Assembly: GCA_045863315.1 (NCBI GenBank)
Contig: BTUX01000003.1
Location: forward strand, 1 to 49,473
Source: Candidatus Hydrogenedentota bacterium
GTDB lineage: Bacteria > Hydrogenedentota > Hydrogenedentia > Hydrogenedentales > SLHB01
Length of the DNA stretch: 49,473 bases
Direction of reading: 5' to 3'
Part shown: in pieces, positions 3,761 to 28,950 of the stretch
Layout of the letters: each line of letters begins with the position of its first letter
Numbering within the stretch: the stretch's first letter is position 1
The notes under the pieces: model-generated
The model's database searches: none
What the model was told of the DNA's origin: nothing
What the model saw: the letters and a program-made list of their open reading frames with translations, nothing else
Translations under genes and position numbers: made by a program

Positions 3761-3786
3761 TATACTGGACATTGAAGTCCACTTAT
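3761..3786 (+). promoter_or_regulatory. Candidate Rrf2 operator overlapping a -10 box upstream of the porin
   Basis: TATACTGGAC-ATTGAA-GTCCACTTAT; the GGAY-N6-GTCC core recurs at 6090-6103. Confidence 0.5.
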
Positions 3787-3853
3787 GGACACGGGGGCGA
3801 GTGGCCGCCATGGCCGACGGAGCGGGCGGTCACCGTACTGCGGAGGGAGACCC

Positions 3854-5407
3854 ATGAAATACCTGATGGCGATTGGTCTAATGGGGGGGGTGGCGTTGAC
3901 GGCGGCCGCCGAGTTGCAGAACGTAGACGTCGGCGGCGAGATCCGAATCCGGGCCCGGTATTGGCAAAACACGTACGTGACCGGAATCAATGGTCCCGGA
4001 GAAATCCGCATACCGGACTTCTTCGTGCCGAAGCGCGCGATCGGGCCCTTTGGCGTCACGAGCCGCTACGACTGGAACGACGCCGAGAGCGATCTGGATT
4101 TCGTCGAGCAGAGGACCCGCCTGAACGTGCGGGCGGATTTCACGAACGAGGTGGCGGCATTCCTCGAACTCGAATCGTATGACATCTGGGGCGAAGAGTT
4201 CCGCTCGAATTACGTGACGGGCGCCGACGCCAGGGCCAATACGAACAACGATGTGGAAATGTATCAGGCATACATCGAGGCGAGCGAGATCTACGGGCTG
4301 CCCCTTCGCCTTCGAATCGGGCGCCAGGAGCTGAAACTCGGCAAAGGCTGGCTGGTCGACGACATCACGACCGCCATCATCGGCCGCTCGTTCGACGCGG
4401 TCCGGTTGACGTACAGCACCGATACTTTCGACGTTGACGCCTGGTGGAGCAAGCTTGCCGAGGGCGGAGCCGATGAAGAGGACGGCGACATCGACTTTTA
4501 CGGCCTGTATGCCACGTGCAAGGCGTTGGAGGCGCTCCATGCATCTGTCTACTGGCTCTATATTCGCGACGGGCGGAGCTTGAACGACACGAACTTCATA
4601 GCCCCGATCGAATGGCTCGAAGACCTCGTCGGCTTGGACAACTACGATCCCACCGGGATGCACACCGTCGGCGTGCGTCTGTTTGGCGGCGTGGAACGGC
4701 TGGACTACGATCTCGAACTCGCGTATCAGTTCGGCGACGCGGACGCCGTGGGCGTCGGCTTCGCCCCGGCGGGATACCTCTACGGCGATGACGATGCGGA
4801 TTTCGACGCGTGGGCGGGTGATCTCGAGATCGGATACACGATCGACATGGCCTGGCAGCCCCGCGTGTTTGTGGGCGGCGCCTATTTTGAGGGGGAGGAC
4901 AACCGGGACCTCACGTTTTTCGAATGGCTCAACCCATTCCACCGCCCGGAGGCCAGCGTCTCCTTTAATCGCCTCTTCCCGGGAAAACCCTACAGCATGA
5001 TCCTCGAAATCGGGCAGGACATGTCCAACTTCTGGCAGGCGCGCGGCGGCGTGACGGTACATCCCACCGATTCGGTGAGCAGCGGGCTGACGGTGGCGTA
5101 CTTCGGAGTCGACGAGCCGTTTGACGCCCCCGTCACGGTCACGGTAGGCAATTTTAAAATCCCGGTCGCGCCCGCGCTGAGCTTTTGGACGAACGAATCC
5201 GCCGACGACATCGGCGTGTCGACGCACCTGTGGATCAATTACCAGTATTCGGAAGACCTGTATTTCAAGATCGGCTGGGAGCACCTGTTCACGGGGCAGG
5301 GACTCGAAGACGGCAGTTTCATGCACCGGTACGGTCTCGAATTCAGCGGGGGATCGGACGACGACGATGCGGATTACATCTACTTCGACACGGGTCTGAA
5401 GTTCTAG
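3854..5407 (+). CDS. Alginate-export-family outer membrane beta-barrel porin
   Basis: Signal peptide after a GGAGGGAG RBS; GGEIRIRAR, EQRTRLNV, VEMYQAYIE, LRIGRQEL, SFDAVRL strands; C-terminal Phe (YFDTGLKF). Confidence 0.8.
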   Translation: MKYLMAIGLMGGVALTAAAELQNVDVGGEIRIRARYWQNTYVTGINGPGEIRIPDFFVPKRAIGPFGVTSRYDWNDAESDLDFVEQRTRLNVRADFTNEVAAFLELESYDIWGEEFRSNYVTGADARANTNNDVEMYQAYIEASEIYGLPLRLRIGRQELKLGKGWLVDDITTAIIGRSFDAVRLTYSTDTFDVDAWWSKLAEGGADEEDGDIDFYGLYATCKALEALHASVYWLYIRDGRSLNDTNFIAPIEWLEDLVGLDNYDPTGMHTVGVRLFGGVERLDYDLELAYQFGDADAVGVGFAPAGYLYGDDDADFDAWAGDLEIGYTIDMAWQPRVFVGGAYFEGEDNRDLTFFEWLNPFHRPEASVSFNRLFPGKPYSMILEIGQDMSNFWQARGGVTVHPTDSVSSGLTVAYFGVDEPFDAPVTVTVGNFKIPVAPALSFWTNESADDIGVSTHLWINYQYSEDLYFKIGWEHLFTGQGLEDGSFMHRYGLEFSGGSDDDDADYIYFDTGLKF

Positions 5408-5489: not shown

Positions 5490-6047
5490 ATGTTCAAGTT
5501 GTACTCCAAGGGCTGTGAATATGCCTTGCGCGCTCTGTCCTTCGCGGCGATGACCAACGGCGAAGGCCGGTTCAAGACGCGGGAAATCTGCGAGTGGACC
5601 GGAATTCCGGAATCCTACGCGCGAAAGATGTTCCTCGCCCTCGTTCACAGGGGACTGCTGCGGGCCATACGAGGTCCGGGCGGAGGCTACGCGCTGACGC
5701 GATCACCCGGGCGCATTACGTTGCTCGACATCATCCAGGCCGTCGACGGGAAGGACACCTTCGATCACTGCGTGATGGGACTGCAGATTTGCGATTCAGC
5801 GGATCCGTGCCCGCTCCATGAAACCTGGGCGCGCGCAAAGGAGCGACTGCTGGCGCAGCTCCGCCGGCGCACGCTCGAGGACTTGCTGACAGCCTCGGCC
5901 GGGGCAATGTGCCGCCTCGTCTCGACGAGCGCGGGGAAGGACAGGCGACGGTCATGCTCAGGGGTCTGGGGTGGAGGTGCGTCGAGCGAGCGCTCATCAA
6001 ACGAAGGGGACGAGCGCAATCGTCCGGGCGGAAAGAAAAGGGGTTGA
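5490..6047 (+). CDS. Rrf2 family transcriptional regulator (three-Cys, Fe-S-binding type)
   Basis: SKGCEYALRAL, RGPGGGYAL, ITLLDIIQAVDG, and Cys cluster CVMGLQICDSADPCPLH. Confidence 0.88.
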   Translation: MFKLYSKGCEYALRALSFAAMTNGEGRFKTREICEWTGIPESYARKMFLALVHRGLLRAIRGPGGGYALTRSPGRITLLDIIQAVDGKDTFDHCVMGLQICDSADPCPLHETWARAKERLLAQLRRRTLEDLLTASAGAMCRLVSTSAGKDRRRSCSGVWGGGASSERSSNEGDERNRPGGKKRG

Positions 6048-6174: not shown

Positions 6175-7086
6175 ATGAAAGTGCGCGGCCACTGCAACGG
6201 TCACGGCGCCAGGCGCAGACTTTGGATTGCGCTTCGACCCGGCGTGTGCGTCGCGCTGTGCACGGGCATGCTGGCGGCCCCGCCCGCGGGAACACAGGAA
6301 CCGGAGGGAGCGGCCGCCCCGCAGCCGGAAGCCCCCCAAGCCTTGGCGCCAGCGGTCCCTGAAGAAGTGTCGGCTTCCGCCGAGCCCGAACCGGACCATG
6401 CGGCGCAGTTGTACACCTTGAAGTGCGCAGGCTGTCACACGGTGGGAGGAGGGGCGCTTTCGGGTCCCGATCTGAAGCCGACCCAAACATGGCCTCGCGA
6501 CAATCTCGTCCCTGCAATCCAGCGGATGGAAAAAAATGTGGGCCCCTTGAAGCCGGAGGAGGTCGAGCAGTTGACCGATTTCCTGTTGGCGGCAGACGCG
6601 GCGGCGCGCCTGGTTGAGGAGCGCAAACGAATCAGCCTTCAGCAGGCGGCCAAGCTCGAACCCGCGTCGGCCGCGATAGGAGAAGCCTTGTTCTTTGGCC
6701 GGCAACCGCTGACGAACGGGGGCTTGTCGTGCGCGTCTTGCCACGCCGTCGCGGGCCGGGGCGGCAACCTCGCCAGCGACCTCACGGGCAGTTTTGCCAA
6801 GTTGGGCGAAGTGCCCCTGGGTTCGACCATTGAAAACGCGACGTTTCCCCTGATGCAGGTGGCCTACGCGAACGGTCCGGTCAGCAAGCAGGAAACGGTG
6901 CATCTCGTGAAATATCTGGAAACCGTATCCAAAGAACCGCCCGCGGCGGTCCGCGTGCCGCCCATTCACGGCATCGGCACGGTGGGCGCGGCGGCGATCA
7001 TTGCGCTAATGGGCGTTTCCTACCGCGGTCGGAACCGGGGCGTTCGAGCACGGCTCGTGCAAGCGGCAACGAGGAGAACTTCGTAA
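6175..7086 (+). CDS. narC: Membrane-anchored diheme cytochrome c (NarC-like)
   Basis: Two CxxCH motifs (CAGCH, CASCH), N-terminal export signal, C-terminal TM helix; stop overlaps the narG ATG; GGAGGA RBS. Confidence 0.75.
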
Positions 7087-10718: not shown

Positions 10719-10902
10719 ATGCGGTACAAGTCGCAGACCAACGCCGGGCACCCCGAGAAACCCGGAACCCGGGTACGGAGCGGGACGGAAAGCATGCATA
10801 CGAGACACCCGAAACCCATCGCGCGTGCCGTCCCCGCAGGCCACCGCGAGCACTGACAGGCCGACACCGCAATCGGATAACGGAACGAAGGAGACCACCC
10901 CA

Positions 10903-12408
10903 ATGGATGTACGCGCCCACGTATCGATGGTGTTCCACCTCGATAAATGCATCGGGTGCCACACGTGCAGCGTGGCGTGCAAAAACGTGTGGACGGACCG
11001 GCCCGGCGCCGAATACATGTGGTGGAACAATGTCGAAACCAAACCCGGCACCGGCTATCCCACATTGTGGGAGGACCAGCTCAACTACAAGGGCGGCTGG
11101 GAAGTGACGGCAGGGCGCGAACTGCGGCTGCGTTGTCAGACCAAGGCGAGCAGTTTTCTCAAGCTGTTCTACAACCCCAACCAACCCGGTCTGGACGACT
11201 ACTACGAGCCCTGGACGTATCGCTACCAGGAGCTGTTCGACGCCGAGGCGGGAGATGATCAACCCACGGCCATTCCCGTCTCGCAGATCACCGGCGAGCC
11301 GATCGACATCGAAGCCGGTCCCAACTGGGACGACGATCTGAGCGGGTCCCCGATTTATGCGGAAAACGATCCCAATCTGAAGCGCCTCACCGACGATGAG
11401 CGGCGCATGCTGTTCGAAATCGAGAACGTCGCGATGATGTACCTGCCGCGCATTTGCAACCACTGCGCCAATCCGAGTTGCGTCGCGTCGTGCCCGTCCG
11501 GCGCGCTGTACAAGCGCGGAGAGGACGGCATTGTGCTCGTCAATCAAGACGTATGCCGCGGATGGCGCGCCTGCGTGGCGGCTTGCCCGTACAAAAAGAT
11601 GTACTACAACTGGCAGACCGGCAAGTCCGAGAAGTGCATCCTGTGCTATCCGCGGGTGGAAACAGGGCAGGCCCCGGCGTGCTTCCACTCGTGCGTCGGA
11701 CGCATCCGCTACATGGGGGTGCTGCTCTACGACGCGGGACGCATGGAAGACGCGATGAAGGCGCCCGACGAGTCGCTGGTGGAAGCGCAACGCGGCGTAT
11801 TGCTCGATCCGAACGATCCCGAAGTTGTCCGCGAGGCGATCCGGAGCGGCGTCAGCGAGAAGTTCATCGAGTCGGCGCAGCGTTCGCCAGTGTACAAGTA
11901 CGTAAAAGAATGGCAGCTCGCGCTCCCGCTCCACGCGGAATTCCGCACCATGCCCATGCTCTATTATGTTCCCCCGCTACTGCCGGTTTCCGGGCGGATG
12001 GGCGACGGAATCTACGAGCACGACGCCGAGGAATTCTTCTCGCATCTCGACAAAGCACGAATCCCGATCCGATACCTGGCCGCGCTGTTCGGCGCGGGCA
12101 ACGAGGACGTCGTCCGCGCGGTGCTGAAGAAACAGATGGCGGTCCGCTACTACAAACGCGCGCAGGAGGTCGATGACGTGGAGCCGGACCGAGTAAAGCG
12201 GGTGCTGCGCGAAGCGCACCTCACGGCGGAAGACGCCGAGGCCATCTACGCGCTGACCTCCCTGTGCGGGCCGGACGATCGGTATGTGCTGCCTCCAATC
12301 CAACGCGAGGAAGCCATCGACGGGCGCGACACGCAGGGCTGCTCGCCGGAACTGTGCAAGGGCCAGTGCGGGCTGGGTCAGGTGCAGATGCCGCGTCGGG
12401 GGGCCTGA
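10903..12408 (+). CDS. narH: Nitrate reductase beta (Fe-S) subunit
   Basis: DKCIGCHTCSVACKNVW, CNHCANPSCVASCP, CRGWRACVAACPY, KCILCYPR; GAAGGAG RBS. Confidence 0.96.
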   Translation: MDVRAHVSMVFHLDKCIGCHTCSVACKNVWTDRPGAEYMWWNNVETKPGTGYPTLWEDQLNYKGGWEVTAGRELRLRCQTKASSFLKLFYNPNQPGLDDYYEPWTYRYQELFDAEAGDDQPTAIPVSQITGEPIDIEAGPNWDDDLSGSPIYAENDPNLKRLTDDERRMLFEIENVAMMYLPRICNHCANPSCVASCPSGALYKRGEDGIVLVNQDVCRGWRACVAACPYKKMYYNWQTGKSEKCILCYPRVETGQAPACFHSCVGRIRYMGVLLYDAGRMEDAMKAPDESLVEAQRGVLLDPNDPEVVREAIRSGVSEKFIESAQRSPVYKYVKEWQLALPLHAEFRTMPMLYYVPPLLPVSGRMGDGIYEHDAEEFFSHLDKARIPIRYLAALFGAGNEDVVRAVLKKQMAVRYYKRAQEVDDVEPDRVKRVLREAHLTAEDAEAIYALTSLCGPDDRYVLPPIQREEAIDGRDTQGCSPELCKGQCGLGQVQMPRRGA

Positions 12409-12410
12409 TC

Positions 12411-12947
12411 ATGCCGGTACTCGCGACAAATCGGACGTTCCTGGCGGGACTCGGCAAACTGCTCGAATACCCCGGGCAGGATTTCCATGCACACTTTGAT
12501 CGCGTCCTCGCACAGTCCGACGAAATGGGGCCCGAAATCGGCGCCGCGCTGTATTCGTTCGCCCAGGAAGCATCGCAATTCTCGGTCGAACACGCGCAGG
12601 AAATGTACACGCGCGCATTCGACGTGAACCCCCTCTGCGTGCCGTATCTCAGCGTCCATTTGTTCGGACAGGAAAGCTTCAAGCGCGCGGAACTCATGAC
12701 GGGGCTAAAGGCGAAGTACGAAGCTCGCGGCTTCGATTACGGCGCGGAACTCCCGGATCATCTCTCGGTCGTGTTGCAGGCCGTCTCCTGTTTTTCCGAT
12801 GACGAGTGGGACGAACTGCGTACCTATTGTATCGAGAAACCGTTGGCCGCCATGGCGGCGGCCCTGGATCGCGCCGCCAGTCCCTGGCGTCACGTGGTGC
12901 GCGCCGTCCAGCGCGCGTTGTCGATTGGGGAAGAGGACCATGCTTAG
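12411..12947 (+). CDS. narJ: Nitrate reductase molybdenum cofactor assembly chaperone
   Basis: LLEYP, QEMYTRAFD, PYLSVHLFG, ELPDHLSVVL; lies between narH and narI. Confidence 0.9.
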   Translation: MPVLATNRTFLAGLGKLLEYPGQDFHAHFDRVLAQSDEMGPEIGAALYSFAQEASQFSVEHAQEMYTRAFDVNPLCVPYLSVHLFGQESFKRAELMTGLKAKYEARGFDYGAELPDHLSVVLQAVSCFSDDEWDELRTYCIEKPLAAMAAALDRAASPWRHVVRAVQRALSIGEEDHA

Positions 12948-14259
12948 CTCATTCGCATTCATCGGACTACCGTACATCGCCCTATTCGTGCTTGTCGCAG
13001 GGTCGATTTACCGCTTTCGCTCCACCCCGTTCAGCTATACCGCGCTGTCGTCCCAGTTCCTCGAGAGCAAGAAACTGCTTTGGGGGTCGGCGCCGTGGCA
13101 CATTGGGATTCTCATCGTCTTTCTCGGCCACCTCGTACCCTTCCTCGTCCCGGGCCTGTGGCAGGGCCTCACGTCGCATATCGGGTTCCTGTTCGCCGTA
13201 GAGGTCGTGGGGATGATTGCCGCGTTCCTGTGTCTGGCGGGTCTGACCGTCCTGATTCTCCGGCGCCTGACTTCGCCGCGCGTACAGGCCGTCACGACCC
13301 CGATGGACCTCGTCATCCTTGTCCTGCTCCTGGGACAGGTGTTGCTCGGCATCGCAACCGCCTCGAATTACCGCTGGGGCGCCGCCTGGTCCGCGCACAC
13401 GACGACGCCGTACTTGTGGAGCCTGTTGACGCTTCAACCCGACATGCGGTATGTCGAGATGCTTCCGCCGACCGTCAAACTTCACATCTTCGGCGCCTGG
13501 CTGATTTTCTTGTGCCTGCCGTTTACGCGGCTCGTGCATGTGTTCTCTTTGCCGTTCCAATATCTCTGGCGGAGGCCGCAGGTGGTGGTGTGGACCAACG
13601 CCCGGCGCATCGCGAGCATCGCCCCTATTGCCCGCACCGCGGAACAAAGCCGCCGGCTCTTTCTCAAAGGCATGGTCGGGGTCAGTTCCGCCGCCGGTCT
13701 GCTCACGGTCGGTGTATTGGACAAACTGGCCCGCTTTTTCAGCGGCCCGGACATGACGCCGGAAGAACAGGCCGCGCTGCTCAAGAAGCGATTGCAGCGC
13801 CTCGAAATGACCGCCGAGGAACGGGAGTTGGAACTCGAACGACTCCGCAGCGACTACATTTTCGTCGCGCAGTTGAGCGAATTATCGCCGAAAGACGGCA
13901 AATATTTTATCGACTACGAGATGCGGCCGGCGCTCGCGTTTCGTGACGAATCGGGCCTGCCGATTCTGATCTCCGCGAAGTGCACGCATCTGGGCTGCAC
14001 GGTCGCCAGCACGATTGACAGCAACGGTCGCATACTCTGCCCCTGCCACATGTCGTATTTCGATGTGAAGACCGGCCGGCCGCAGCCGGGGGCGCCCGCG
14101 ACGGTGCCCCTCCCGATGTTGGGATGGGTGCTCAAAGACCCGCAAGGCAAAGTGTTAATCAGTCAGAGCCCGAGCGGCGCGCTCGAAGGCGAGGCCACCC
14201 CCGAGCAATTGGAGACGTCCGCGGTGTTCATCGCAAAACGCTACGAGGAGATTGCGTAA
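12940..14259 (+). CDS. narI: NarI (diheme cytochrome b) fused to an internal Tat motif, TM anchor and Rieske [2Fe-2S] domain
   Basis: NarI part: SSQFLE, WHIGILIVFLGH, KLH...PFTRLVH (four heme His). Then SRRLFLKG, a hydrophobic helix, and CTHLGC / CPCH Rieske boxes, all in one 439-aa frame. Confidence 0.9.
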   Translation: MLSSFAFIGLPYIALFVLVAGSIYRFRSTPFSYTALSSQFLESKKLLWGSAPWHIGILIVFLGHLVPFLVPGLWQGLTSHIGFLFAVEVVGMIAAFLCLAGLTVLILRRLTSPRVQAVTTPMDLVILVLLLGQVLLGIATASNYRWGAAWSAHTTTPYLWSLLTLQPDMRYVEMLPPTVKLHIFGAWLIFLCLPFTRLVHVFSLPFQYLWRRPQVVVWTNARRIASIAPIARTAEQSRRLFLKGMVGVSSAAGLLTVGVLDKLARFFSGPDMTPEEQAALLKKRLQRLEMTAEERELELERLRSDYIFVAQLSELSPKDGKYFIDYEMRPALAFRDESGLPILISAKCTHLGCTVASTIDSNGRILCPCHMSYFDVKTGRPQPGAPATVPLPMLGWVLKDPQGKVLISQSPSGALEGEATPEQLETSAVFIAKRYEEIA

Positions 14260-15362
14260 TGAGTTCCGATCGGCTCAACGCCCTCGCCCACTTTTTCCGC
14301 GAGCGGTTTCCGGTCGAGCACCTGAGCTATGAATCGATGGTGCAGAAAAAAGAGGTGCCGGTCCATCGCATGAGTTGGGCCTACTACTTCGGCGGCCTTA
14401 CCCTGTTCTTCTTTCTCATTCAGCTGGCCACGGGGGTCATGCTCCTGTTTTATTACCAGCCGACCGTTAGCGATGCGCACGCCTCCGTGGAGTTCATCGC
14501 CAAGCACGTGAGCGGCGGCGCGCTCGTCCGCAACCTGCACACGTGGGCCGCGTCCGGCATGATCTTCTGCCTGCTGGTCCACCTGATCACGACGTTTGCC
14601 ATGAAGGCCTTCGCCAAACCCCGCGAGGTCACGTGGATTACCGGCGTCGTGCTGCTGCTGCTGACCTTCGGGTTCGGGTTCACCGGCTATCTCCTCCCGT
14701 GGCACCAGATCGCCGTCAACGCCACCAAGGTCGGCCTCCAATCCATCGAAGAGGCGGGCCAATATCTGCCCGGCGCCCTGTCCCAAATCCCTAGAGACGT
14801 CAAAGAACTCATTCAGGGCGAAGCTTCCGTCGGCCAAGCCACCTTGAGCCGCTTTTTCGCGCTGCACGTGGTCATTCTTCCGCTGCTGGTTTTTGCGACC
14901 CTCGGCCTTCACGTGTTTCTCGTTCAACTCCACGGCATGAGCCAAGGGGTCGATACGCCGGCAACGAAGACCGAGCGCTTCTTCCCCTTCTTCGTTCTCA
15001 AGGATTTCTATCTGTGGGGTCTCGTCTTCCTCGTGCTGTTCGCCGTGTCGTTATGCCTGCCGTTCGAGTCGATGTTCTCCTACCCCTTGTTCGAGCCCTT
15101 CGACCCCTTGGGCTCAACGCCGGACGGCATTAAACCGGAATGGTACTTCTACTTCGTGTACTACCCGCTCGAACTGCTGCCGTTTTGGTTCGTCATGCTC
15201 GCATCGATGGCCACGATCGCCGTCCTGATCGCAGCGCCCTGGATTTTCGCCCAGACCAGCCGGCGGACCCTCGGAATGATGGCGGCCGGGGCCGCGATCT
15301 ACCTCGTTGTGATGACGCTGTTCGGCGACGCGATCTATACGTTTTTTAGAGGAGCACCATGA
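14259..15362 (+). CDS. Cytochrome b of a Rieske/cytochrome b (bc-type) complex, unsplit
   Basis: YFGGLTL...ATGVMLLFYYQP, RNLHTWAAS...LVH, GFTGYLLPW, RFFALH...LGLH, Qo motif IKPEWY; coupled to the NarI-Rieske stop (TAATG). Confidence 0.92.
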   Translation: MSSDRLNALAHFFRERFPVEHLSYESMVQKKEVPVHRMSWAYYFGGLTLFFFLIQLATGVMLLFYYQPTVSDAHASVEFIAKHVSGGALVRNLHTWAASGMIFCLLVHLITTFAMKAFAKPREVTWITGVVLLLLTFGFGFTGYLLPWHQIAVNATKVGLQSIEEAGQYLPGALSQIPRDVKELIQGEASVGQATLSRFFALHVVILPLLVFATLGLHVFLVQLHGMSQGVDTPATKTERFFPFFVLKDFYLWGLVFLVLFAVSLCLPFESMFSYPLFEPFDPLGSTPDGIKPEWYFYFVYYPLELLPFWFVMLASMATIAVLIAAPWIFAQTSRRTLGMMAAGAAIYLVVMTLFGDAIYTFFRGAP

Positions 15363-16003
15363 TGAAGGCCAATCACCTCGGCGGATCTATCTCGATTTGC
15401 GTTATCGCGCTGGCGAGCGCGCAGGTCGCGTTGGCATACCCCGAGTTTCAACAGTTCATCCAGCGCAACTCGGGCCGGAACGTCAATTGCGCGATGTGCC
15501 ACGTCAATTCGGATGGCCCCGAAGGGCTGAAACCCGGGCAAATCGGCAGTCTCACGCCGGAGGAAATGGATCGGTTGAACAAGGCGCGTGCGGCCTTCGA
15601 GCCCGGGCAGCGCGTCGACAGTCCGATCCTCAACACGTTTGGCAATCACATCATGGAAACCGTGGGGAAAAACCGTTTCCTGCAACTCCGGCTTGATCCC
15701 GCCGGTCTTGCGGAGGCGCTCGGCCGCGAAAGCGATCTCGACGATGACGGCATCTGCGACGCGGACGAGTATCTCGAGGGCACGCACCCGCTGGACGCGC
15801 ACCACGGCAGCCCGTGGCGGCTTTTCAAGACGAACGCCCGCCGGTACGCCTTCCACATCGCGATGATGGTCTTGGCTACCGCCGCGGGTGTGTACGGACT
15901 GAACAACCTGCTGCGCGCCTTCGACGCCGCGGCCCATGCACGGGCGGGAGGCCAGACCGCCGGGCGGGAGTGGTCCGGCGCGCGCGAGAACCGGAGAGGA
16001 TGA
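15359..16003 (+). CDS. Membrane-anchored monoheme cytochrome c (candidate c1/f functional analogue)
   Basis: Signal peptide ending ALA, CAMCH, acidic DLDDDGICDADEY repeat, C-terminal TM helix; ATGA overlap with cytochrome b. Confidence 0.7.
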   Translation: MMKANHLGGSISICVIALASAQVALAYPEFQQFIQRNSGRNVNCAMCHVNSDGPEGLKPGQIGSLTPEEMDRLNKARAAFEPGQRVDSPILNTFGNHIMETVGKNRFLQLRLDPAGLAEALGRESDLDDDGICDADEYLEGTHPLDAHHGSPWRLFKTNARRYAFHIAMMVLATAAGVYGLNNLLRAFDAAAHARAGGQTAGREWSGARENRRG

Positions 16004-16072: not shown

Positions 16073-17578
16073 ATGAAAGACCGTGGAAAAGCGTTGACCG
16101 TGCTCGTGTTGAATACCGTCGCGTTCACCGTGTGCTTTGCATGTTGGATGCTGAACGGCGTCCTGGTCACGTTTCTCAGTGAAAACCACGTTTTCGAGTG
16201 GAGCGAATCCCAGATCGGCTGGCTCATGGGCATTCCCGTGCTTAGCGGATCCCTTATACGGCTGCCCGTCGGCATTCTGACGGACAAATACGGCGGGAAA
16301 TGGGTGTACGCCGGAGTCATGCTCTTTTCGGCGATTCCGATGTACCTGCTGAGTTACGCAAGCACCTACGCGCATTTCTTCTGGGCGAGCCTTGGCTTCG
16401 GCCTCGCCGGCACTTCATTCGCCGTCGGCATCGCGTACACCTCGGTATGGTTCCGGCGCGAACATCAGGGCACGGCGCTTGGCATCTTCGGCGCGGGAAA
16501 CGCGGGCGCCGCGCTGACCAGCATGGGCGCGCCGGTCCTGCTAGGCTGGCTCACCGACCACGGTGAAAACGTGGAGGCATGGCGCCAGATGCCCCGCATT
16601 TACGCATTAGGATTGCTGCTCATGGCCGTCCTGTTCCTCCTGTTTGCGGCGCCCAAAAAGGTGGATGACTCGCACATCACCAGCTTTATGCAGCGCCTCG
16701 CGCCGTTGCGCCATGCGCGGGTCTGGCGGTTCGGGCTGTATTACTTCCTCGTATTCGGCGGCTTCGTCGCGCTTGCCCAATGGCTGATCCCCTACTACGT
16801 CAGCGTCTACATGATGCCGCTGGCCATGGCGGGCCTATTGGCCTCGATTTTCAGCCTGCCTTCCGGCGTCATTCGCGCGTTGGGCGGATACCTCTCCGAC
16901 GTCTACGGCGCTCGGCGCGTCATGTATTGGGTCCTGGGCAGTTGCGCGGTTTGCTGCGCACTGCTGGTTGTTCCGCGTATGGACATCCACTCGCCGGGCA
17001 AGGGCATCATCGCCAAGCGTAGCGGCACCGTCACCCACGTGAGCGAAGCCGAGATAGTGGTAGACGGCATTCGCTATCCGGTGCGGGCCAAGACGCGCGA
17101 AATCGAACGGGACGCGAACATGCTCATTTTGCCGACGCTCAGCACGTGGCAGGAGCCCGTGGTCAAGGTGGGCGAGGTCGTGAAAAAGAAGCAATTGCTC
17201 GCCGCGGGAATGACTCACATTTATTTCCAGGCCAACGTGTGGGTGTTCACCGGACTGGTATTCATTGTGGGTGTCATGATGGGAATTGGAAAGGCCGCGG
17301 TCTACAAGCACATTCCCGATTACTTTCCGAAAGAAGTCGGCGTGGTTGGCGGAATCGTCGGCGTGCTTGGCGGATTGGGGGGGTTCTTCTGCCCCATCAT
17401 TTTCGGTTACATGCTCGAGTGGACGGGCCTGTGGATCACGTGCTGGTTTTTCTTTGCAGCACTGTCCATCGTCTGCCTGTGGTGGATGCACGCCGTGATC
17501 CAGCAGATGCTGAACCAGGAAGCCGCGCTTCATGCCCGAAACATCGAGCATGTGACAGTCACGGCGGAAACCGCATAG
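16073..17578 (+). CDS. narK: NarK1-type nitrate/nitrite MFS transporter with a soluble insert
   Basis: NNP signatures GTALGIFGAGNAG and GIVGVLGGLGGF, RALGGYLSD; ~85-aa hydrophilic insertion in the C-terminal half. Confidence 0.9.
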   Translation: MKDRGKALTVLVLNTVAFTVCFACWMLNGVLVTFLSENHVFEWSESQIGWLMGIPVLSGSLIRLPVGILTDKYGGKWVYAGVMLFSAIPMYLLSYASTYAHFFWASLGFGLAGTSFAVGIAYTSVWFRREHQGTALGIFGAGNAGAALTSMGAPVLLGWLTDHGENVEAWRQMPRIYALGLLLMAVLFLLFAAPKKVDDSHITSFMQRLAPLRHARVWRFGLYYFLVFGGFVALAQWLIPYYVSVYMMPLAMAGLLASIFSLPSGVIRALGGYLSDVYGARRVMYWVLGSCAVCCALLVVPRMDIHSPGKGIIAKRSGTVTHVSEAEIVVDGIRYPVRAKTREIERDANMLILPTLSTWQEPVVKVGEVVKKKQLLAAGMTHIYFQANVWVFTGLVFIVGVMMGIGKAAVYKHIPDYFPKEVGVVGGIVGVLGGLGGFFCPIIFGYMLEWTGLWITCWFFFAALSIVCLWWMHAVIQQMLNQEAALHARNIEHVTVTAETA

Positions 17579-17594: not shown

Positions 17595-19211
17595 ATGGCT
17601 GTGCTCGCAAAGTGGGAGCCGGAAGACGTCGCGTTCTGGGAAAGCGAGGGGAAACGCACGGCGTTCCGAAACCTTTGGATTTCCATTCCAAACCTGCTGA
17701 TGGCATTTGGTATCTGGATTTACTGGAGTGTGATCATCAGCGTCATGCAGGGCCTTCACGACGGCAACCCGGCCCTGTACAACTTCACCGCGGCCGACGG
17801 CCGGCCGTTGACGGGAAACGCGTATAAAGCGCTGCTCTACACGCTGCCGGCGGTCGCGGGACTGTCGGGCGCAACGTTGCGCATCCCGAATTCCTTCATG
17901 ATCGCAATCTGCGGTGGCCGCAATGTCAAGTTTATGACCACGCTCCTGCTGATTCTTCCCGCTCTGGGTACCGGGTTTGCCTTGAAGGACCCCGGCACCT
18001 CGTTCTTCACCTACGTGGTGTTGGCCGCGCTCTGCGGCATCGGCGGCGGCGCCTTCGCGTCGTCCATGTCCAACATCAATTTCTTTTTTCCCAAGCGCGT
18101 CCAGGGGTTGTCGCTGGGGTTGAACGCAGGACTTGGAAACCTCGGGGTCTCCGTGTTCCAGTTGGCGATTCCGTGGGTCATCACGTTTGGAATCTTCGGC
18201 GGCGAACCGTTTGACCTGAAGGGCGCGCCCGTCTGGCCGCACAACGCGGGGTTTGTGTGGGTGCCGATCCTGGCGGTGCTGGCCGTCTTGGCCTTTACCT
18301 CCATGAACAACCTGCCCCAGCACTTCAACGGTTCCACGCTTGTTGCGTGCGGCCGCTATCTGTGGCTCGAACTGCTGGGCTATGGCGGCGTGGCCGTCGC
18401 CATTCTGCTCCTCTTACAGTCCAAGTCGTGGAGCTTCGCGCCTGAACTCCTCGAGACGCTCGTCATTGTCTGCGTCGCGATTACCGTCACCATGGCGCTG
18501 ATGCGGTTCGCCACTCCAAGACAGACGAGGGACAGCCTGCAAAAACAGTTCGCCATCTTCTCGAACAAACATAATTGGGTGATGACGTATCTCTATGTGA
18601 TGACCTTCGGCAGCTTCATCGGATATTCCAGCGCCTTTCCCAAATTGCTCAAAGACGTGTTCGGCTACGTGCGCGTCGATGAGTCCGGCGCCCCGCTGGC
18701 CGAGGCTATCGTGAATCCCCATGCGCCCGACTTCCTGAAGTTCGCCTTTCTCGGCGCCGCGATGGGCGCTGCCATTCGCCCCTTGGGCGGGTGGCTCTCC
18801 GACAAGTTCGGCGGTGCGCGGGTCACCCATTGGGACACCGTCATCATGACGGGAACCGCCGTGCTGTGCGGGTGGGTCGTAAAACTGGCGATGGCGTCGG
18901 CGCACCCCGAGCGGTACTTCCTCCCCTTCTTATTGCTGTTCATACTGTTGTTCGCGACCACGGGGATCGGAAACGGTTCGACCTTCCGCATGATCGCCAT
19001 CATCTTTCCAAAGGAGCAGGCCGGGCCCGTCCTCGGATGGACTTCGGCGGTCGCCGCCTACGGCGCCTTCCTCATTCCCACCATCTTTGCGATGCAAATC
19101 GAGGCCGGCCGCCCCGAGTACGCCATGTACGGGTTTGCCGTGTACTACGTGACGTGCCTCGCGCTCAACTGGTGGTACTACGCCCGCACGAATGCCGAAG
19201 TAAAGTGCTGA
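17595..19211 (+). CDS. narK: NarK2-type nitrate/nitrite antiporter
   Basis: WEPED..FWE..GK..AFRNLWISIP, GLNAGLGNLG, TFGSFIG, GIGNGSTFRMI, GWTSAVAAYG. Confidence 0.92.
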   Translation: MAVLAKWEPEDVAFWESEGKRTAFRNLWISIPNLLMAFGIWIYWSVIISVMQGLHDGNPALYNFTAADGRPLTGNAYKALLYTLPAVAGLSGATLRIPNSFMIAICGGRNVKFMTTLLLILPALGTGFALKDPGTSFFTYVVLAALCGIGGGAFASSMSNINFFFPKRVQGLSLGLNAGLGNLGVSVFQLAIPWVITFGIFGGEPFDLKGAPVWPHNAGFVWVPILAVLAVLAFTSMNNLPQHFNGSTLVACGRYLWLELLGYGGVAVAILLLLQSKSWSFAPELLETLVIVCVAITVTMALMRFATPRQTRDSLQKQFAIFSNKHNWVMTYLYVMTFGSFIGYSSAFPKLLKDVFGYVRVDESGAPLAEAIVNPHAPDFLKFAFLGAAMGAAIRPLGGWLSDKFGGARVTHWDTVIMTGTAVLCGWVVKLAMASAHPERYFLPFLLLFILLFATTGIGNGSTFRMIAIIFPKEQAGPVLGWTSAVAAYGAFLIPTIFAMQIEAGRPEYAMYGFAVYYVTCLALNWWYYARTNAEVKC

Positions 19212-23379: not shown

Positions 23380-24813
23380 CTACGCCAGCAACTCCGTGAC
23401 GATCCTACCGGAGACGTCGGTCAGGCGAAAATCTCTCCCCTTGAATCGATACGTCAACCTGGTGTGGTCCATGCCGAGCAGGTGCAGAATGGTCGCCTGC
23501 AGATCATGCACGTGGACCGGTTTCTCGACGACATGGAAGCCGAGGTCGTCGGTGGCGCCGATGGTCTGTCCGGTCCGGACGCCCCCACCGGCGATCCACA
23601 TGGTGAAGGCCTGGGGGTGGTGGTCGCGGCCCATGCTGCGCCCCAGCGCCGCGCTGGATTCGACCATGGGGGTGCGGCCGAATTCGCCGCCCCAGATGAT
23701 GAGCGTGTCCTCGAGCATGCCGCGCTGCTTCAAGTCCTTAATCAATGCGGCCGTCGCCCGATCGGTTGCGCCGCACTGGGCCTTGAGACCGCCGGCGACG
23801 TCGCCGTGGTGGTCCCAGCCGCCGTGGTACACGTTGACGAAGCGGACGCCGCGTTCGAGGAGGCGGCGCGCGAGCAGACAGTTATTCGCGAACGAGGCCT
23901 TGCCGGGTTCCGCGCCGTACATCGCGAGGGTTTCGGGCGATTCCTTCGCGATGTCCATGAGTTCCGGCGCGCTGCTCTGCATGCGGTAGGCCAGTTCGTA
24001 GTTGCTGATGCGCGTTTCGATTTCGGGATCGCCGACCGCTTCGAAGCTGTGGCGGTTGAGTTGGTTGATGAGATCGATGGAGTCGCGTTGCATCAGCGCA
24101 TCGATGCCCTGAGGGTTTGAAACGCTGAGAATGGGATCGCCCGCGCTCCGGAACGGCACGCCTTGATAAACCGTAGGCATGAACCCGCAACCCCAGCAAT
24201 GCGCTCCGCCGCTCACGCCTTCGCCCGTGCTGAGCACGACAAACCCGGGGAGGTCGTCCGCTTCGCTGCCGAGTCCGTAGGCGACCCACGAGCCCATGCT
24301 GGGCCGGCCCATCTGCGGGGAACCGGTGTTCATGAAGATTTGCGCGGGCGCGTGATTGAATTGGTTCGTGTGCATCGACTTCACGATGGCGATATCGTCG
24401 GCGACGGTGGCGAGGTGGGGAAGCATCTCGGAGAGTTCCGCGCCGGACTGGCCATACTTGGCGAACTGGAATCGCGACGCCATCAGGCCGGCATTGGGCT
24501 GAATGAAGGCGTACCGCTGGTCCTTGACAATCTCCGGCGGGACGGATCGGCCGTCGTATTTGGTGAGCGTCGGTTTATAGTCGAAGAGATCGAGTTGGCT
24601 CGGCGCGCCCGCCATGAACAGGTAGATGACTCGCTTCGCCTTGGCCGGGTAGGGGGGCCGGCGCGGCGCGAGCGGGTTGGGCGCGGCGGCCGCAGCGCCA
24701 CGGCAAAGCATCGAGGCCAGCGCAATCTTGCCTACCCCCACCCCGCACTCGCGGAAGAAGTGCCGGCGGGTGAGGGTTTGGAGCCGGATAGAATCGCTTC
24801 TACGTTGAACCAT
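23380..24813 (-). CDS. DUF1501 domain protein
   Basis: [59 protein letters not shown]; follows a DUF1553 gene. Confidence 0.92.
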
Positions 24814-24955: not shown

Positions 24956-27900
24956 TCACCCCCTCGTGATGGTCTCGTCGAGGTTGAGGAGCGCGCGGCA
25001 GACGAGGGTCCAGGCGGCGTGCTCGGCCCGCTTGATTTCGCCGGCGGCGAGGGAGTCGGGAATGGTTGGCGTTTCGGCAAGGCGCTGGAGTTGCCTTTCG
25101 TAGAAGGCCGCGATCCATTCCTGTTCCCGCGGATCGGGGTTGCGGCCGGTGCAGAGCTGGAAGGCGCGGGCGATCCGGCTTTGTGTGTCAGATGCTTCGT
25201 GCATGACGCGGCCCGCCAATGCGCGGGCGGCTTCCATGAACACGGGATCGTTCAATAGCGTGAGCGCCTGCAACGGCGTGTTCGAGCGGACCCGGCGCGT
25301 GCAGGCCACATCGCGCGCGGGGGCGTCGAAGGTGCCGGCGGCGGGGAAGGGCAGCGTGCGCTTCCAGTAGACGTAGAGTCCGCGGCGGTAGCGGTCATCG
25401 CCGTCGGCGACCTGCCAGCCTTCGCCGGGGTAGACGATCGACAAGGCGCCGTCGGGCAGCGGCGGTTTCACGCTGGGTCCGCCGATTTTTTCCGAGAGCA
25501 GTCCGCTTGCGCTCAGCGCGATGTCGCGAATGGTTTCGGCGTCGACGCGGTAGCGCGGGGCGCGCGCGAGCAGGATGTTTTCGGGATCGCGTTCGGCGAG
25601 TTCGGGCGTGACGCGGGAGCTTTGGCGGTACGTCGAGGAGAGCACGATCATCCGGGTCATTTCCTTCATGCTCCAACCTCGACGCATGAATTCGACGGCG
25701 AGCCAATCGAGCAGTTCGGGGTGCGTGGGGAGATCGCCGCGCGTGCCAAAGTCCTCGACGGAAGCGACGATGCCGCGTCCGAAGAGCGATTGCCACAGGC
25801 GGTTCATCGTGACGCGCGCGGTCAGCGGGTTTTCTTCGGAGACGAGCCATCGCGCGAGCGTGAGACGGTTGAGCGGCGCGCCGGCGGGCAATGGGGGGAG
25901 AATCGCGGGCACGCCGGGGGTGACCACGTCGCGCGGGCTCAAGAATTCGCCGCGGTGGTGGATGCGCGTTTCGCGCGGATGTTCGCGCTCTTCGAGGACG
26001 AGCGTGGTCGGGAACTTCGGCATCAAGCCGCGCAGATCGGCGATGCGCTGGTGTTCCCGCGCTAGTTCCGGCGCGACTGTGAGGTAGTACTTCTGCAAGG
26101 TGTCCACCTGCTCCGCCGAACGCGCGTTCTGAGGTGTCGCGAGGATGGTTTCGATGTCGTGCGGCACGCCGGTCGCACGCACCGGCAGCGGATCGGAAGT
26201 GACCGACACGCGGAAGCGCCCGATGATGTGGTTGTGGACGTAGTATTGTTCAAGGACGAGTTTCAAAAGCGTTCCGCCGTCGTGGGCGACAGGCTCCGCA
26301 AATTCGTACACGATCGCGTGGGGCCGGCTTTGCTGCCCGTTGATCGACCAGCCCGTGTCAATCTTGCCGTCGAGCGTCTGCTCGGGCGTGCGGCCCGGCG
26401 CGGCGAAGTCCGCGGTGGGATTTTGCAGCGCGATATCCGCGATGGAATCGGGCGCCATCCACGGCGCGACGGCCGCTTTCACTTCGCTCAACAGAAAGTC
26501 GCCCGGCGCCGACATGATGACGCCGCGGCCGGGCCCGTGGTTGGGCAGCGAAGGATGCGGCAGGACTTCGATGCGGACCGCGGTAAGGTCCCTGACATCG
26601 GTCCGGAATTCGGTGTAATAGGTGTCAACATTGGGATTGTCGCCTTTGACCAGTACCGAATTGTCTTCGAGGAACTCAAAGGTGACATGGTTCTTCGACG
26701 AACACGTCACCGGAGTCGCTACGGTCCAGTTGCGCGCGCGGGAAGTGAGGTCCGCGTCCCACCCCGCAAACTTGCGATCGAAGTGTCGAGCCCGCCGGAC
26801 CTCATCGGGTTCGTCGGAAGGGGGGATCGTTTCCGCAATCGTCGAGACACGGAAACGGGCGATGGTGTGATTGCGGCCGTATTGCTGATCGAGTCGCAGG
26901 GTCAACCGCGCGGGCGAGGCAAGTTCCAGCGGTTCCGCGAACCACAGCGAGAGCGCGTGGGGCGCAAGTTTGTCGACGCCGTGCCCATCGATGGCCCAGC
27001 CGGTTTTCGGGTCGCCGTCGATGGCCTTCTCCGCTTCGAACCCGGTGTTGACGGCGTCGGCGTCGGCGCGCGCGAATTTCACATCTCTCGGCTTTTCCTC
27101 GCCTTGGACGGGCAGCGTCGCGATCGCTTCCGACAGTACGAAGTTGCCTTTGTCCGAACGTCCGGGGCCAAGGCCTCCGCTTTCGGCTGAGACTTCGATC
27201 GTGAGGCCGGTGACGCGGCCGGGGGCCAGGTCGATTTCCACCGTGTAGGTATCGACTGCGGGAGATTCGCCGGTGACCGCAACAAGGCCGTCTTCGGAAA
27301 CGGACAACGTTGCGTTGCCGGCAGACGTTGCTACGACAGGGCGAGCGGTAAGAATTTCGGTGAGGGGATCGGCAACCGGAAATTTTTGGGGAAGTTCGGA
27401 GACGAGTGTTGCGATTTCGTTTTCGATTGCGCGCCGCTTCGCCGCGATTTCGGCGTCGGGCACTTCGATTTCGACGTCGTCGGTGTTGTTCAGAAACGCA
27501 TAGAACCGGAAGTACTCTTCGTGCGTGATGGGATCGTACTTGTGCGAATGACACTGCGCACAGGCCATCGTCAGCCCCAGGAACATCGCCGCGGTCGTGT
27601 TCACGCGATCCACCATGGCCTCGTAACGGAATTCCTCGGTGTCGATGCCGCCTTCCTCGTTCAGCATCGAGTTGCGATGGAATCCCGTGGCGATGCGCTG
27701 ATCGAGTGTGGCGTTCGGCAGCAAATCGCCCGCGAGCTGCTCGATCGTAAACCGGTCGAAGGGCAAGTCCCGGTTGAACGCGTTGATGACCCAATCGCGG
27801 TACGGCCAGATGGATCGCGGCCGGTCCTTCTCGTAGCCGTTGGTGTCGGCGTAGCGTGCTCCGTCAAGCCAGCGCAGGGCCTGCGCCTCGCCGTAGTGCG

Positions 27901-28630: not shown

Positions 28631-28950
28631 TGCATGGCCTCGATAGCAGCTTTGACCCAATACCTTCTCAGAATACCAGATTCCCAACGGTTTGCGAACC
28701 CCGCCGACCTGCCAACCAAACGGCTGGATGAATTCCGGGTTCAGCTTTGCGAGAATCAGCCGGGGCAGGCGAACACTCAAGATGGAACGGAAAGCGCCGC
28801 ACTCCAGTTTTCATAAACCCAATCGGCGGGGCCGGTGCCTTTTTCGGCATAATGGATGCAAACTTGCGCGCTGCGTCCCGGTCAGTTCGAGTGTCGTCGC
28901 CGAGCTACGTTGGTTCTTTCTCTGGGTCCGCCTTGGAGAACGGAGGTTGA

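Follow-up and report, generated by a model that had tools for sequence, protein, structure and literature searches.

A NarI-Rieske fusion conserved in bacterial nar operons, predicted to tie nitrate reductase to a bc-type complex

Introduction

The membrane-bound nitrate reductase NarGHI is the textbook enzyme that takes its electrons directly from quinol, in a simple redox loop that bypasses the bc complex. In a contig of Candidatus Hydrogenedentota bacterium (GenBank assembly GCA_045863315.1, contig BTUX01000003.1; the 49,473 nucleotides analysed, positions 1 to 49,473 of the forward strand, are called the window below), a single gene encodes both NarI, the membrane anchor of nitrate reductase (Nar), and a Rieske iron-sulfur protein. 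This locus raises the question of whether such a joint is real, how the resulting protein would be assembled in the membrane, and why a nitrate reductase should be tied to a Rieske subunit at all. An original prediction, made from the DNA letters, had proposed a dual substrate of the secretory (Sec) and twin-arginine translocation (Tat) pathways. Following it up with profile searches, structure prediction, surveys of related loci and phylogenetics, we consider it probable, from sequence comparison, that the fusion is a bifunctional subunit that ties Nar to a dedicated bc-type complex and that is assembled by Sec and then by Tat. The distribution of the gene suggests that Nar and Rieske/cytochrome b machines may be built as one unit in many uncultured bacteria.

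Results

One reading frame encodes NarI and a Rieske protein

Translation of the window yields, at 12940-14259 (+), a single stop-free frame of 439 amino acids (aa), the ATG of which shares 8 nucleotides (nt) with the end of narJ. Pfam assigns residues 4-218 to Nitrate_red_gam (PF02665; expectation value (E) 9.6e-64, 215.4 bits with a cut-off of 22.9) and residues 307-391 to Rieske (E 1.2e-8), and the protein passes the NCBIfam narI equivalog model (TIGR00351) with 141 bits against a cut-off of 105.55. The gene is made up of the following parts:

12940..13593 (+): NarI domain, residues 1-218, with five helices and four haem-ligand histidines
13594..13647 (+): variable linker, residues 219-236, predicted to be cytoplasmic, between the NarI homology and the twin-arginine motif
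13648..13668 (+): internal twin-arginine motif S-R-R-L-F-L-K, residues 237-243, with conserved R238/R239
13663..13719 (+): sixth transmembrane helix (TM6), residues 242-260, a weakly hydrophobic putative signal-anchor helix
13747..13854 (+): conserved charged helix, residues 270-305, between TM6 and the Rieske fold
13855..14235 (+): Rieske [2Fe-2S] domain, residues 306-432, matching Pfam Rieske, with six invariant Cys/His

The haem ligands of Escherichia coli NarI, His56, His66, His187 and His205, align with His54, His64, His182 and His200 of the fusion; in the alignment of 69 family members, His54, His64 and His182 never vary, and at least 90% of the sequences retain His200. The residue at the place of Lys86, which is part of the E. 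coli quinol site, varies across 18 fused and also across 60 free NarI sequences. In the Rieske part, the two boxes read C348-T-H-L-G-C353 (nt 13981-13998) and C367-P-C-H370 (nt 14038-14049), and their six Cys/His residues are all invariant in the alignment of 69 members; among them is the cysteine pair that makes the disulfide of respiratory Rieske proteins. Both boxes are present in 39/39 related loci (37 fused, two with a free Rieske protein), and the domain is predicted to bind a [2Fe-2S] cluster. The original prediction had described one 439-aa chain with a complete NarI carrying four haem histidines, a twin-arginine motif at about residue 237 (nt 13648) followed by a hydrophobic helix, and CTHLGC and CPCH boxes that include the disulfide cysteines, and this description stands, the motif starting at the position named.

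An AlphaFold2 model of the fusion, built on 69 homologues, has a mean predicted local distance difference test score (pLDDT) of 83.4, falling to 50-59 in linker residues 219-236, a segment that is also variable in the alignment of loci. Foldseek matches the NarI half of the model to E. coli NarI (1q16_C; target-normalised TM-score 0.79, 32% identity), and the solved sequences nearest to the Rieske half are Thermus 1nyk (E 3.3e-8) and the bc1 entries 2num and 2qjk (Rhodobacter bc1 chains). Ordinary Rieske proteins have a short flexible hinge where the fusion has the charged spacer of residues 270-305, which is exactly 36 residues long in 69/69 sequences, 45% charged, predicted by AlphaFold2 to be helical at 274-303, and found in free Rieske homologues as well. 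In a dimer, this helix might form a coiled coil with its counterpart from the other Rieske subunit; alternatively, it could act as a spacer that determines how far the head can reach.

The fusion is genuine

Homologues were sought among 5.8 billion clustered proteins, with 8000 candidates scored and 1061 having E up to 0.001; among the matches listed, both Pfam domains occur in 120/120 clusters (429-479 aa, 55-97% identity). A scan of species-representative genomes gave 41 loci, comprising 36 full-length fused frames, one fused frame cut by the start of its contig (L026), two free Rieske homologues (L037 and L038) and two loci with short NarI fragments only. The original prediction had named a stop or frameshift at the junction, and a lack of fused homologues, as observations that would speak against it; the homologues are fused as just described, and the frame contains no stop in 39/39 informative related loci.

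The junction was also checked on contigs (assembled sequences, not reads) of four public runs over positions 12700-14600, none of which has an insertion, a deletion or a joint. DNA contig X7, from a study not flagged as a possible source of the window, spans 12700-13704 including the junction with 0 differences. The contigs of X12 (an RNA library) and X14 (DNA) end within 13583-13651, just before the twin-arginine motif; since X7 bridges the same place, these ends are probably due to strain-level variation in the variable linker. Contigs of the RNA libraries X12 and X16 cover parts of the fusion gene, which is no proof of its transcription. The contig ends close to the junction are what might favour a frameshift or mis-assembly joining two separate genes in this contig, and against it stand the uninterrupted frame in 37 independent genome loci and in the 120 listed protein clusters, the bridging contig and the absence of indels from all four runs, so that we regard the probability of an artefact as negligible. 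The NarI-Rieske fusion is genuine, and its conservation speaks for selection on it.

Topology and probable assembly by Sec and Tat

A hydropathy scan of the fusion finds six helices, with 4, 0, 3, 2 and 7 lysine plus arginine residues (K+R) in the successive loops. Because of this charge distribution, the protein is predicted to have its N-terminus outside, the 40-residue loop between TM5 and TM6 inside, and its last 179 residues, with the Rieske domain, outside, in keeping with the periplasm-facing head of the original prediction, which had named a Rieske domain left in the cytoplasm as a further outcome that would speak against it.

The Tat consensus is S/T-R-R-x-F-L-K, which the motif of the window, S-R-R-L-F-L-K, fits fully. 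R238 and R239 are invariant in 69/69 family sequences, and among the fused loci the pair is RR in 36/37 and KR in 1/37. TM6 has a mean Kyte-Doolittle hydropathy of 1.54, compared with 1.89-2.54 for TM1-5, and is the least hydrophobic of the six helices in 59/69 sequences; the 12 residues that follow it contain a mean of 2.4 K+R (minimum 1; 69 sequences). Free Rieske homologues (P0133-P0135, L037 and L038) carry the same twin-arginine helix as an N-terminal signal anchor, and TatC is encoded in the host genome (E 3.6e-59).

Low hydrophobicity of the last helix and positive charges behind it drive the hand-over from Sec to Tat, according to the text of Tooke et al. 2017 (PMC5449189), where these features are shown for the actinobacterial Rieske protein and two other families. 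Since the hydropathy of TM6 (on the Kyte-Doolittle scale, which differs from the insertion free energy used in PMC5449189) and the charges that follow it match these features, the best-supported route of assembly appears to be insertion of TM1-5 by Sec and then export of the folded Rieske head by Tat. TM1-5 would be inserted co-translationally; Sec would release the weakly hydrophobic TM6, with the positive charges behind it; the Rieske domain would fold and acquire its cluster in the cytoplasm; and Tat would recognise the internal S-R-R-x-F-L-K and export the head, leaving TM6 as an uncleaved anchor. The dual Sec/Tat substrate of the original prediction thus gains support from the conserved arginine pair, the weakly hydrophobic helix, the charges behind it, the use of the same helix as a signal anchor in free homologues and the presence of TatC, all read from sequence.

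The chain might instead be only a precursor, made in one piece for coupled synthesis and targeting and cut near TM6 after export to give an ordinary NarI and an ordinary Rieske protein. The small-residue stretch S-A-A-G (residues 250-253) in TM6 would offer a place for the cut, and free forms of both halves function elsewhere. This stretch lies inside the helix, however, Rieske signal anchors are normally uncleaved, and both fused and free forms conserve the D-K-L-x-R-F-F sequence after TM6 and the 36-residue helix, as a retained anchor would; we therefore hold cleavage to be highly improbable.

The operon around the fusion

The fusion gene stands in a co-directional cluster that runs from an Rrf2-type regulator through a dihaem cytochrome c, narG, narH, narJ, the fusion, cytochrome b and a monohaem cytochrome c to two genes of the NarK family. 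Its other members are:

5490..6047 (+): Rrf2-family transcription regulator at the head of the cluster (Pfam Rrf2, E 1.7e-31)
6175..7086 (+): dihaem c-type cytochrome, NarC/QcrC-like, with a signal peptide, two CxxCH and a C-terminal membrane helix
7086..10718 (+): narG, the catalytic subunit with molybdenum bis-pyranopterin guanine dinucleotide (Mo-bisPGD; NCBIfam narG equivalog, 1538 bits against a cut-off of 1084)
10825..12408 (+): narH, the iron-sulfur subunit (Pfam Fer4_11 and Nitr_red_bet_C)
12264..12947 (+): narJ, the assembly chaperone (Pfam Nitrate_red_del, E 2.8e-12)
14259..15362 (+): cytochrome b (Pfam Cytochrome_B and Cytochrom_B_C), with a b6-like and a subunit-IV-like half
15359..16003 (+): monohaem c-type cytochrome with a signal peptide, one CxxCH and a C-terminal membrane helix, in a c1-like operon position
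16073..17578 (+): NarK-family nitrate/nitrite transporter (Pfam MFS_1; TIGR00886 E 1e-51, 176 bits, below the 311.7-bit cut-off)
17595..19211 (+): second transporter of the NarK/NarU family (NCBIfam NarU E 2.4e-82 and NarK E 4.9e-79, both below their cut-offs)

The N-terminus of NarG has the pattern H-x3-C-x3-C and lacks both a twin-arginine signal and a hydrophobic stretch; without a Tat signal, NarG is therefore predicted to face the cytoplasm. The dihaem cytochrome c has a C-terminal hydrophobic helix followed by an Arg-rich tail, matches Pfam Cytochrom_C and Cytochrome_CBB3, and has a weak match, below the cut-off, to the actinobacterial QcrC model of NCBIfam (E 7.9e-8); its open reading frame extends from 5971, with Met 6175 or 6064 as the probable start. 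The regulator scores above the cut-off for the NCBIfam rrf2 superfamily and below those of the NsrR and IscR models, and an Rrf2 homologue lies upstream in several related loci.

Conservation of the operon was counted over the 37 fused loci, using only contigs that reach far enough. Upstream of the fusion, narJ is found in 31/31 loci, narH in 29/29, narG in 27/27 and the dihaem cytochrome c in 24/24; downstream, cytochrome b follows in 37/37, the monohaem cytochrome c in 34/34 and a NarK homologue in 24/30.

Just upstream of the Rrf2 gene, positions 3785-5407 (+) encode a 540-aa outer-membrane protein of the Alginate_exp family (E 7.8e-36), which might be an outer-membrane channel for nitrate or nitrite. 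Further along the window, a DUF1501 protein (23380-24813 (-), E 7e-162) adjoins a 1274-aa open reading frame (24956-28780 (-)).

A dedicated cytochrome b and cytochrome c

As the two genes after the fusion encode a cytochrome b and a monohaem cytochrome c, the Rieske head is predicted, on the evidence of these sequences, to serve as the iron-sulfur subunit in a complete and dedicated b6-type complex of Rieske protein, cytochrome b and monohaem cytochrome c, rather than to stand alone. The ATG of the cytochrome b gene overlaps the stop codon of the fusion (TAATG). Cytochrome b is unsplit, its b6-like first half gives the best match to a solved structure (spinach cytochrome b6, E 1.1e-48), and four histidines and the Qo motif P-E-W-Y are invariant in 33 sequences. 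Where b6 carries the Cys that binds haem ci, we read Tyr in the alignment.

The monohaem cytochrome c matched no Pfam or NCBIfam family, and its AlphaFold2 model (mean pLDDT 86.7) found no matching fold in the PDB (best E 5.5). Its invariant residues are C44, C47, H48, D126, D128, D130, D134 and E137, with G131 present in at least 90% of sequences; for the sixth haem ligand, the alignment offers neither a Met nor a second His that is invariant. The D-x-D-x-D-G-x-x-D-x-x-E loop formed by the acidic residues looks, from its sequence, like a calcium site.

At L037 and L038 a free Rieske/cytochrome b/cytochrome c trio occurs with no nar genes nearby, the twin-arginine helix there standing at the N-terminus of the Rieske protein.

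The host genome

The genome to which the window belongs is 95.6% complete. It has one cytochrome b and one NarI, both of them in the nar operon, and four Rieske domains, of which the three outside the fusion are soluble and of non-bc type (oxygenase-like, small NirD-like and small ferredoxin-like). MenA is present, and the futalosine pathway marker PF02621 gave no match. The marker ActD of alternative complex III (ACIII) lies on the same contig (C204:3417-8785) as a haem-copper oxidase fragment, and another contig (C54:6672-8573 (-)) carries nrfH, with four CxxCH, and nrfA. Host nrfA has five CxxCH motifs, the usual NrfA pattern being four CxxCH plus one CxxCK. No NirS was found in this genome, and no NirK above the cut-off. 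From its gene content, the host appears to be a nitrate/nitrite ammonifier whose aerobic chain is based on ACIII. Profiles for NosZ (PF18764 on the host genome, TIGR04246 on the 135 genomes of the phylum) gave no match and were silent on control genomes too, and are hence uninformative.

Spread and history

The 37 fused loci carry at least eight phylum labels, with the reservation that labels of metagenome bins can be wrong: Hydrogenedentota, Verrucomicrobiota, Melainabacteria/Obscuribacterales, Bacteroidota, Planctomycetota, Calditrichota, Myxococcota and Pseudomonadota. There is no cultured host among the genomes matched, all named hosts being metagenome-assembled genomes (MAGs), and the fusion of the window groups with those of Hydrogenedentales MAGs at 72-79% identity.

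In a survey of 135 genomes of the window's phylum, 28 match the fusion, 21 of them with the fused gene, six with free NarI only (44-47% identity) and one with a fragment; two genomes (G103 and G059) hold both fused and free NarI. All 21 fused genomes have a cytochrome b match about 110 nt downstream of the fusion. A further cytochrome b match is found elsewhere in 16 of these 21, the other five, including the host, having only the nar-linked one; since most fused genomes thus keep another cytochrome b, the nar-linked one is suggested to be specialised. NirK was found in 0/135 genomes (a Haloferax control was positive). The NirS search gave matches in 62 genomes, only one of which (G060, a genome without the fusion) covers the whole model (E 2.1e-129); the other 61, at E 2.8e-11 or weaker, we read as short propeller-repeat matches and not as NirS. 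The 21 fused genomes thus yielded neither NirS nor NirK.

Clustered at 50% identity, the family comprises about five full-length representatives. Their neighbours include free Rieske forms of 224-229 aa (P0133-P0135), which start shortly before the same twin-arginine helix, and P0131, a cytochrome c::Rieske fusion whose Rieske part belongs to the same clade. In a tree built from the Rieske part, free forms branch from within the fused ones, and well-supported branches require no fewer than three switches between the two states. Different types of Rieske domain are found in three other NarI-Rieske proteins (P0150, P0161 and P0193), each with a twin-arginine pair before the sixth helix; the linker of P0150 matches the Pfam "TAT signal" family of bc1 Rieske proteins. 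In the NarI tree, a constraint that unites the 18 fused rows in a single clade lowers the log-likelihood by 79 units, and the approximately unbiased (AU) test rejects it (p-AU 0.015). Because a single clade is rejected, and because a relative of P0193 also follows narG-narH-narJ (L057:2449-3678, from a metagenome scan that gave two short contigs ending inside the gene), the sequences indicate that NarI was fused to a Rieske protein on more than one occasion. P0193 has Leu at the first haem-ligand His of NarI (PWLYG instead of PWHxG), and its proximal haem site may be altered.

Discussion

Proposed function of the fusion

In the arrangement that we propose, the fusion would be a six-helix bifunctional membrane subunit, of which residues 1-218 would form the dihaem NarI anchor of a cytoplasm-facing NarGH and residues 237-439 a complete Rieske subunit, composed of a twin-arginine signal anchor, the charged helix and the [2Fe-2S] head. 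Nar and the bc-type complex would be made as one obligate, covalently tied supercomplex, a geometry that we infer; with one Rieske subunit per NarI, the two would therefore have to sit together. Menaquinol would be oxidised at the Qo site of cytochrome b. One electron would pass from the Rieske cluster to the monohaem cytochrome c and/or the dihaem cytochrome c, then to haem bD of NarI, and from there through haem bP, NarH and NarG to nitrate, with the other electron recycling through the b haems. Nitrate respiration coupled in this way to a Q cycle would move about 4 charges, rather than 2, for every 2 electrons. That such coupling is the purpose of the fusion has, in our view, a slightly less than even chance of being right; that Nar in this hard-wired supercomplex is no longer a quinol oxidase and has become the terminal acceptor of a Q-cycle complex is a still more tentative proposal.

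Q-cycle coupling is favoured by the position of the bc genes inside the nar operon, between narI and narK, and by the fact that the host already has an ACIII beside its oxidase gene and an NrfH for its NrfA. As NirS and NirK are absent from 21/21 fused genomes of the phylum, Nar would be the obvious anoxic sink for a high-potential chain. Three further observations point the same way: every fused locus that reaches far enough contains the membrane-anchored dihaem cytochrome c, weakly similar to QcrC; a second cytochrome b is kept by most fused genomes; and the fusion arose repeatedly. Several observations weigh on the other side. NarI keeps all its haem ligands and scores as a normal narI equivalog, and may itself oxidise menaquinol, which would make the bc route unnecessary. 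The Rieske/cytochrome b/cytochrome c trio also occurs without Nar, and fused and free states have changed into each other at least three times, so that the module does not depend on NarI; the NarC-like dihaem cytochrome c likewise accompanies free-NarI nar operons in the phylum (33-39% identity) and is not specific to the fusion. Electron transfer from a c haem to haem bD would be uphill if the potentials resemble those of E. coli, and nitric oxide reductase of the cNor type, NosZ, a cbb3 oxidase or cytochrome c peroxidase may serve as other electron sinks.

In another reading, the fusion is a tether and nothing else. NarGHI would then be a classic menaquinol oxidase, the bc-type complex an independent menaquinol:cytochrome c reductase that passes electrons to haem-copper oxidases at low oxygen, cytochrome c peroxidase, NosZ or cNor, and the peptide bond a means of ensuring their 1:1 co-production and co-localisation. 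The intact NarI, the unlinked trio at L037 and L038, the interconversion of states on the Rieske tree and the haem-copper oxidase genes of the host, which could take electrons from cytochrome c, all fit this account. Against it stand the embedding of the bc genes between narI and narK in 37/37 loci, the ACIII that already adjoins an oxidase gene, the NrfH that serves NrfA, and the missing NirS and NirK; moreover, the operon alone already gives co-expression, which would hardly account for a link that originated independently and has been kept across phyla. We consider a mere tether, the chief alternative, rather unlikely. Much further removed is a complex running in reverse, in which a NarGH-like enzyme would oxidise nitrite and the fused complex would drive reverse electron flow to quinone, as bc1 does in Nitrobacter-type oxidisers. 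Cytoplasm-facing nitrite oxidoreductases are close relatives of NarGHI, and a hard-wired link from NarI to the bc complex would suit reverse flow; however, NarG lies far above the narG equivalog cut-off (a comparison with the narG model alone, not with nitrite oxidoreductase), the operon is flanked by an Rrf2 regulator and by two transporters of the NarK type, nrfHA equips the genome for nitrite ammonification, and the hosts are labelled as heterotrophic lineages, so that reverse operation seems scarcely credible. Q-cycle-coupled nitrate reduction is accordingly the purpose that we prefer, at the strength given above.

Novelty and meaning

In the open-access literature (PMC and bioRxiv) we found no description of a NarI-Rieske fusion, the external candidate list of Tooke et al. 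2017, which might contain such proteins, lying outside this scope, nor of an operon of narGHJ, narI::Rieske, cytochrome b and cytochrome c; the original prediction had likewise known of no characterised fusion of this kind. The elements themselves are known: NarI, the Tat-anchored respiratory Rieske protein, polytopic proteins that use both Sec and Tat, the haloarchaeal Rieske/cytochrome b genes and the association of Nar with the bcc complex in Streptomyces. Databases name the fusion "respiratory nitrate reductase subunit gamma" and its fragments "Rieske Fe-S protein", whereby metabolic reconstructions of MAGs from wastewater, groundwater and soil miss both the fusion and the nar-linked complex III.

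A conserved NarI-Rieske bond that carries at least eight phylum labels and arose repeatedly argues strongly, on genetic grounds, that Nar can form an obligate machine with a bc-type complex, and it contradicts the textbook separation of the two. The fusion also represents a new class of proteins that should need Sec and then Tat, with six helices, an outside N-terminus and a Sec-dependent part that is a haem-binding enzyme subunit. If the Q-cycle reading is true, the charge yield of nitrate respiration would be doubled, the NarI-Rieske peptide bond would be a genetic fossil of the coupling, and bc-dependent Nar would be widespread and overlooked. The fusion further offers a natural test system of fixed stoichiometry for Q-cycle-fed Nar, a hypothesis that comes from Streptomyces spores and that the text of PMC7931247 leaves open there.

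Comparison with known systems

Like E. coli NarI (1q16 chain C), the first part of the fusion is a five-helix dihaem b anchor encoded after narG, narH and narJ. E. coli NarI ends in the cytoplasm after about 225 residues, whereas the fusion continues through a Tat motif, a sixth helix and a Rieske domain predicted to be periplasmic; no residue corresponding to Lys86 of the E. coli quinol site is conserved among the fused proteins, and many free NarI proteins are also without this lysine. The narCGHJIK operon of Thermus thermophilus encodes a cytochrome c subunit, NarC, and an unfused NarI, and is not known to contain genes for a Rieske protein or cytochrome b. Like Thermus NarC, the dihaem cytochrome c of the window is membrane-anchored and encoded directly upstream of narG, an arrangement that in the window's phylum occurs with free NarI too. 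Haloarchaeal NarG faces outward, in contrast to the NarG described here, which lacks a Tat signal. Haloarchaeal nar operons carry narB (Rieske) and narC (cytochrome b) in the account of PMC2483277, which names no narI gene and has the Rieske protein free, whereas here NarI is present and fused to the Rieske protein.

In its predicted assembly the fusion resembles actinobacterial QcrA (Sco2149) and other dual Sec/Tat families as these are presented in PMC5449189: an internal twin-arginine pair stands directly before the last helix, this helix is weakly hydrophobic with positive charges behind it, and the cofactor domain is external. Sco3746 likewise has a dihaem b membrane domain as its Sec-dependent part (PMC5449189). 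The fusion has five Sec-dependent helices and its N-terminus outside, in contrast to the two or four helices and inside N-terminus of the families set out in that paper, and its Sec-dependent part, unlike that of QcrA, is the anchor of a different enzyme, Nar. The genome screen of PMC5449189 began from the N-in topology of the actinobacterial Rieske protein, and the word NarI occurs 0 times in its main text.

The closest functional parallel is Nar1 of S. coelicolor, which depends on an active bcc-aa3 supercomplex and is purified together with it (Falke et al. 2021, PMC7931247). For Nar1, QcrC has been proposed to hand electrons to haem bD of NarI, and a yield of 4 H+ rather than 2 per 2 electrons has been calculated for menaquinol at -75 mV and nitrate at +430 mV (PMC7931247). 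In both systems a cytoplasm-facing NarGHI is, or is predicted to be, tied to a Rieske/cytochrome b complex, in Streptomyces including a dedicated cytochrome b paralogue. As described in PMC7931247, the Streptomyces association is non-covalent, rests on unlinked genes and includes the aa3 oxidase; in the system reported here, a peptide bond joins NarI to the Rieske protein, the bc genes are part of the nar operon itself, and the cluster contains no oxidase gene.

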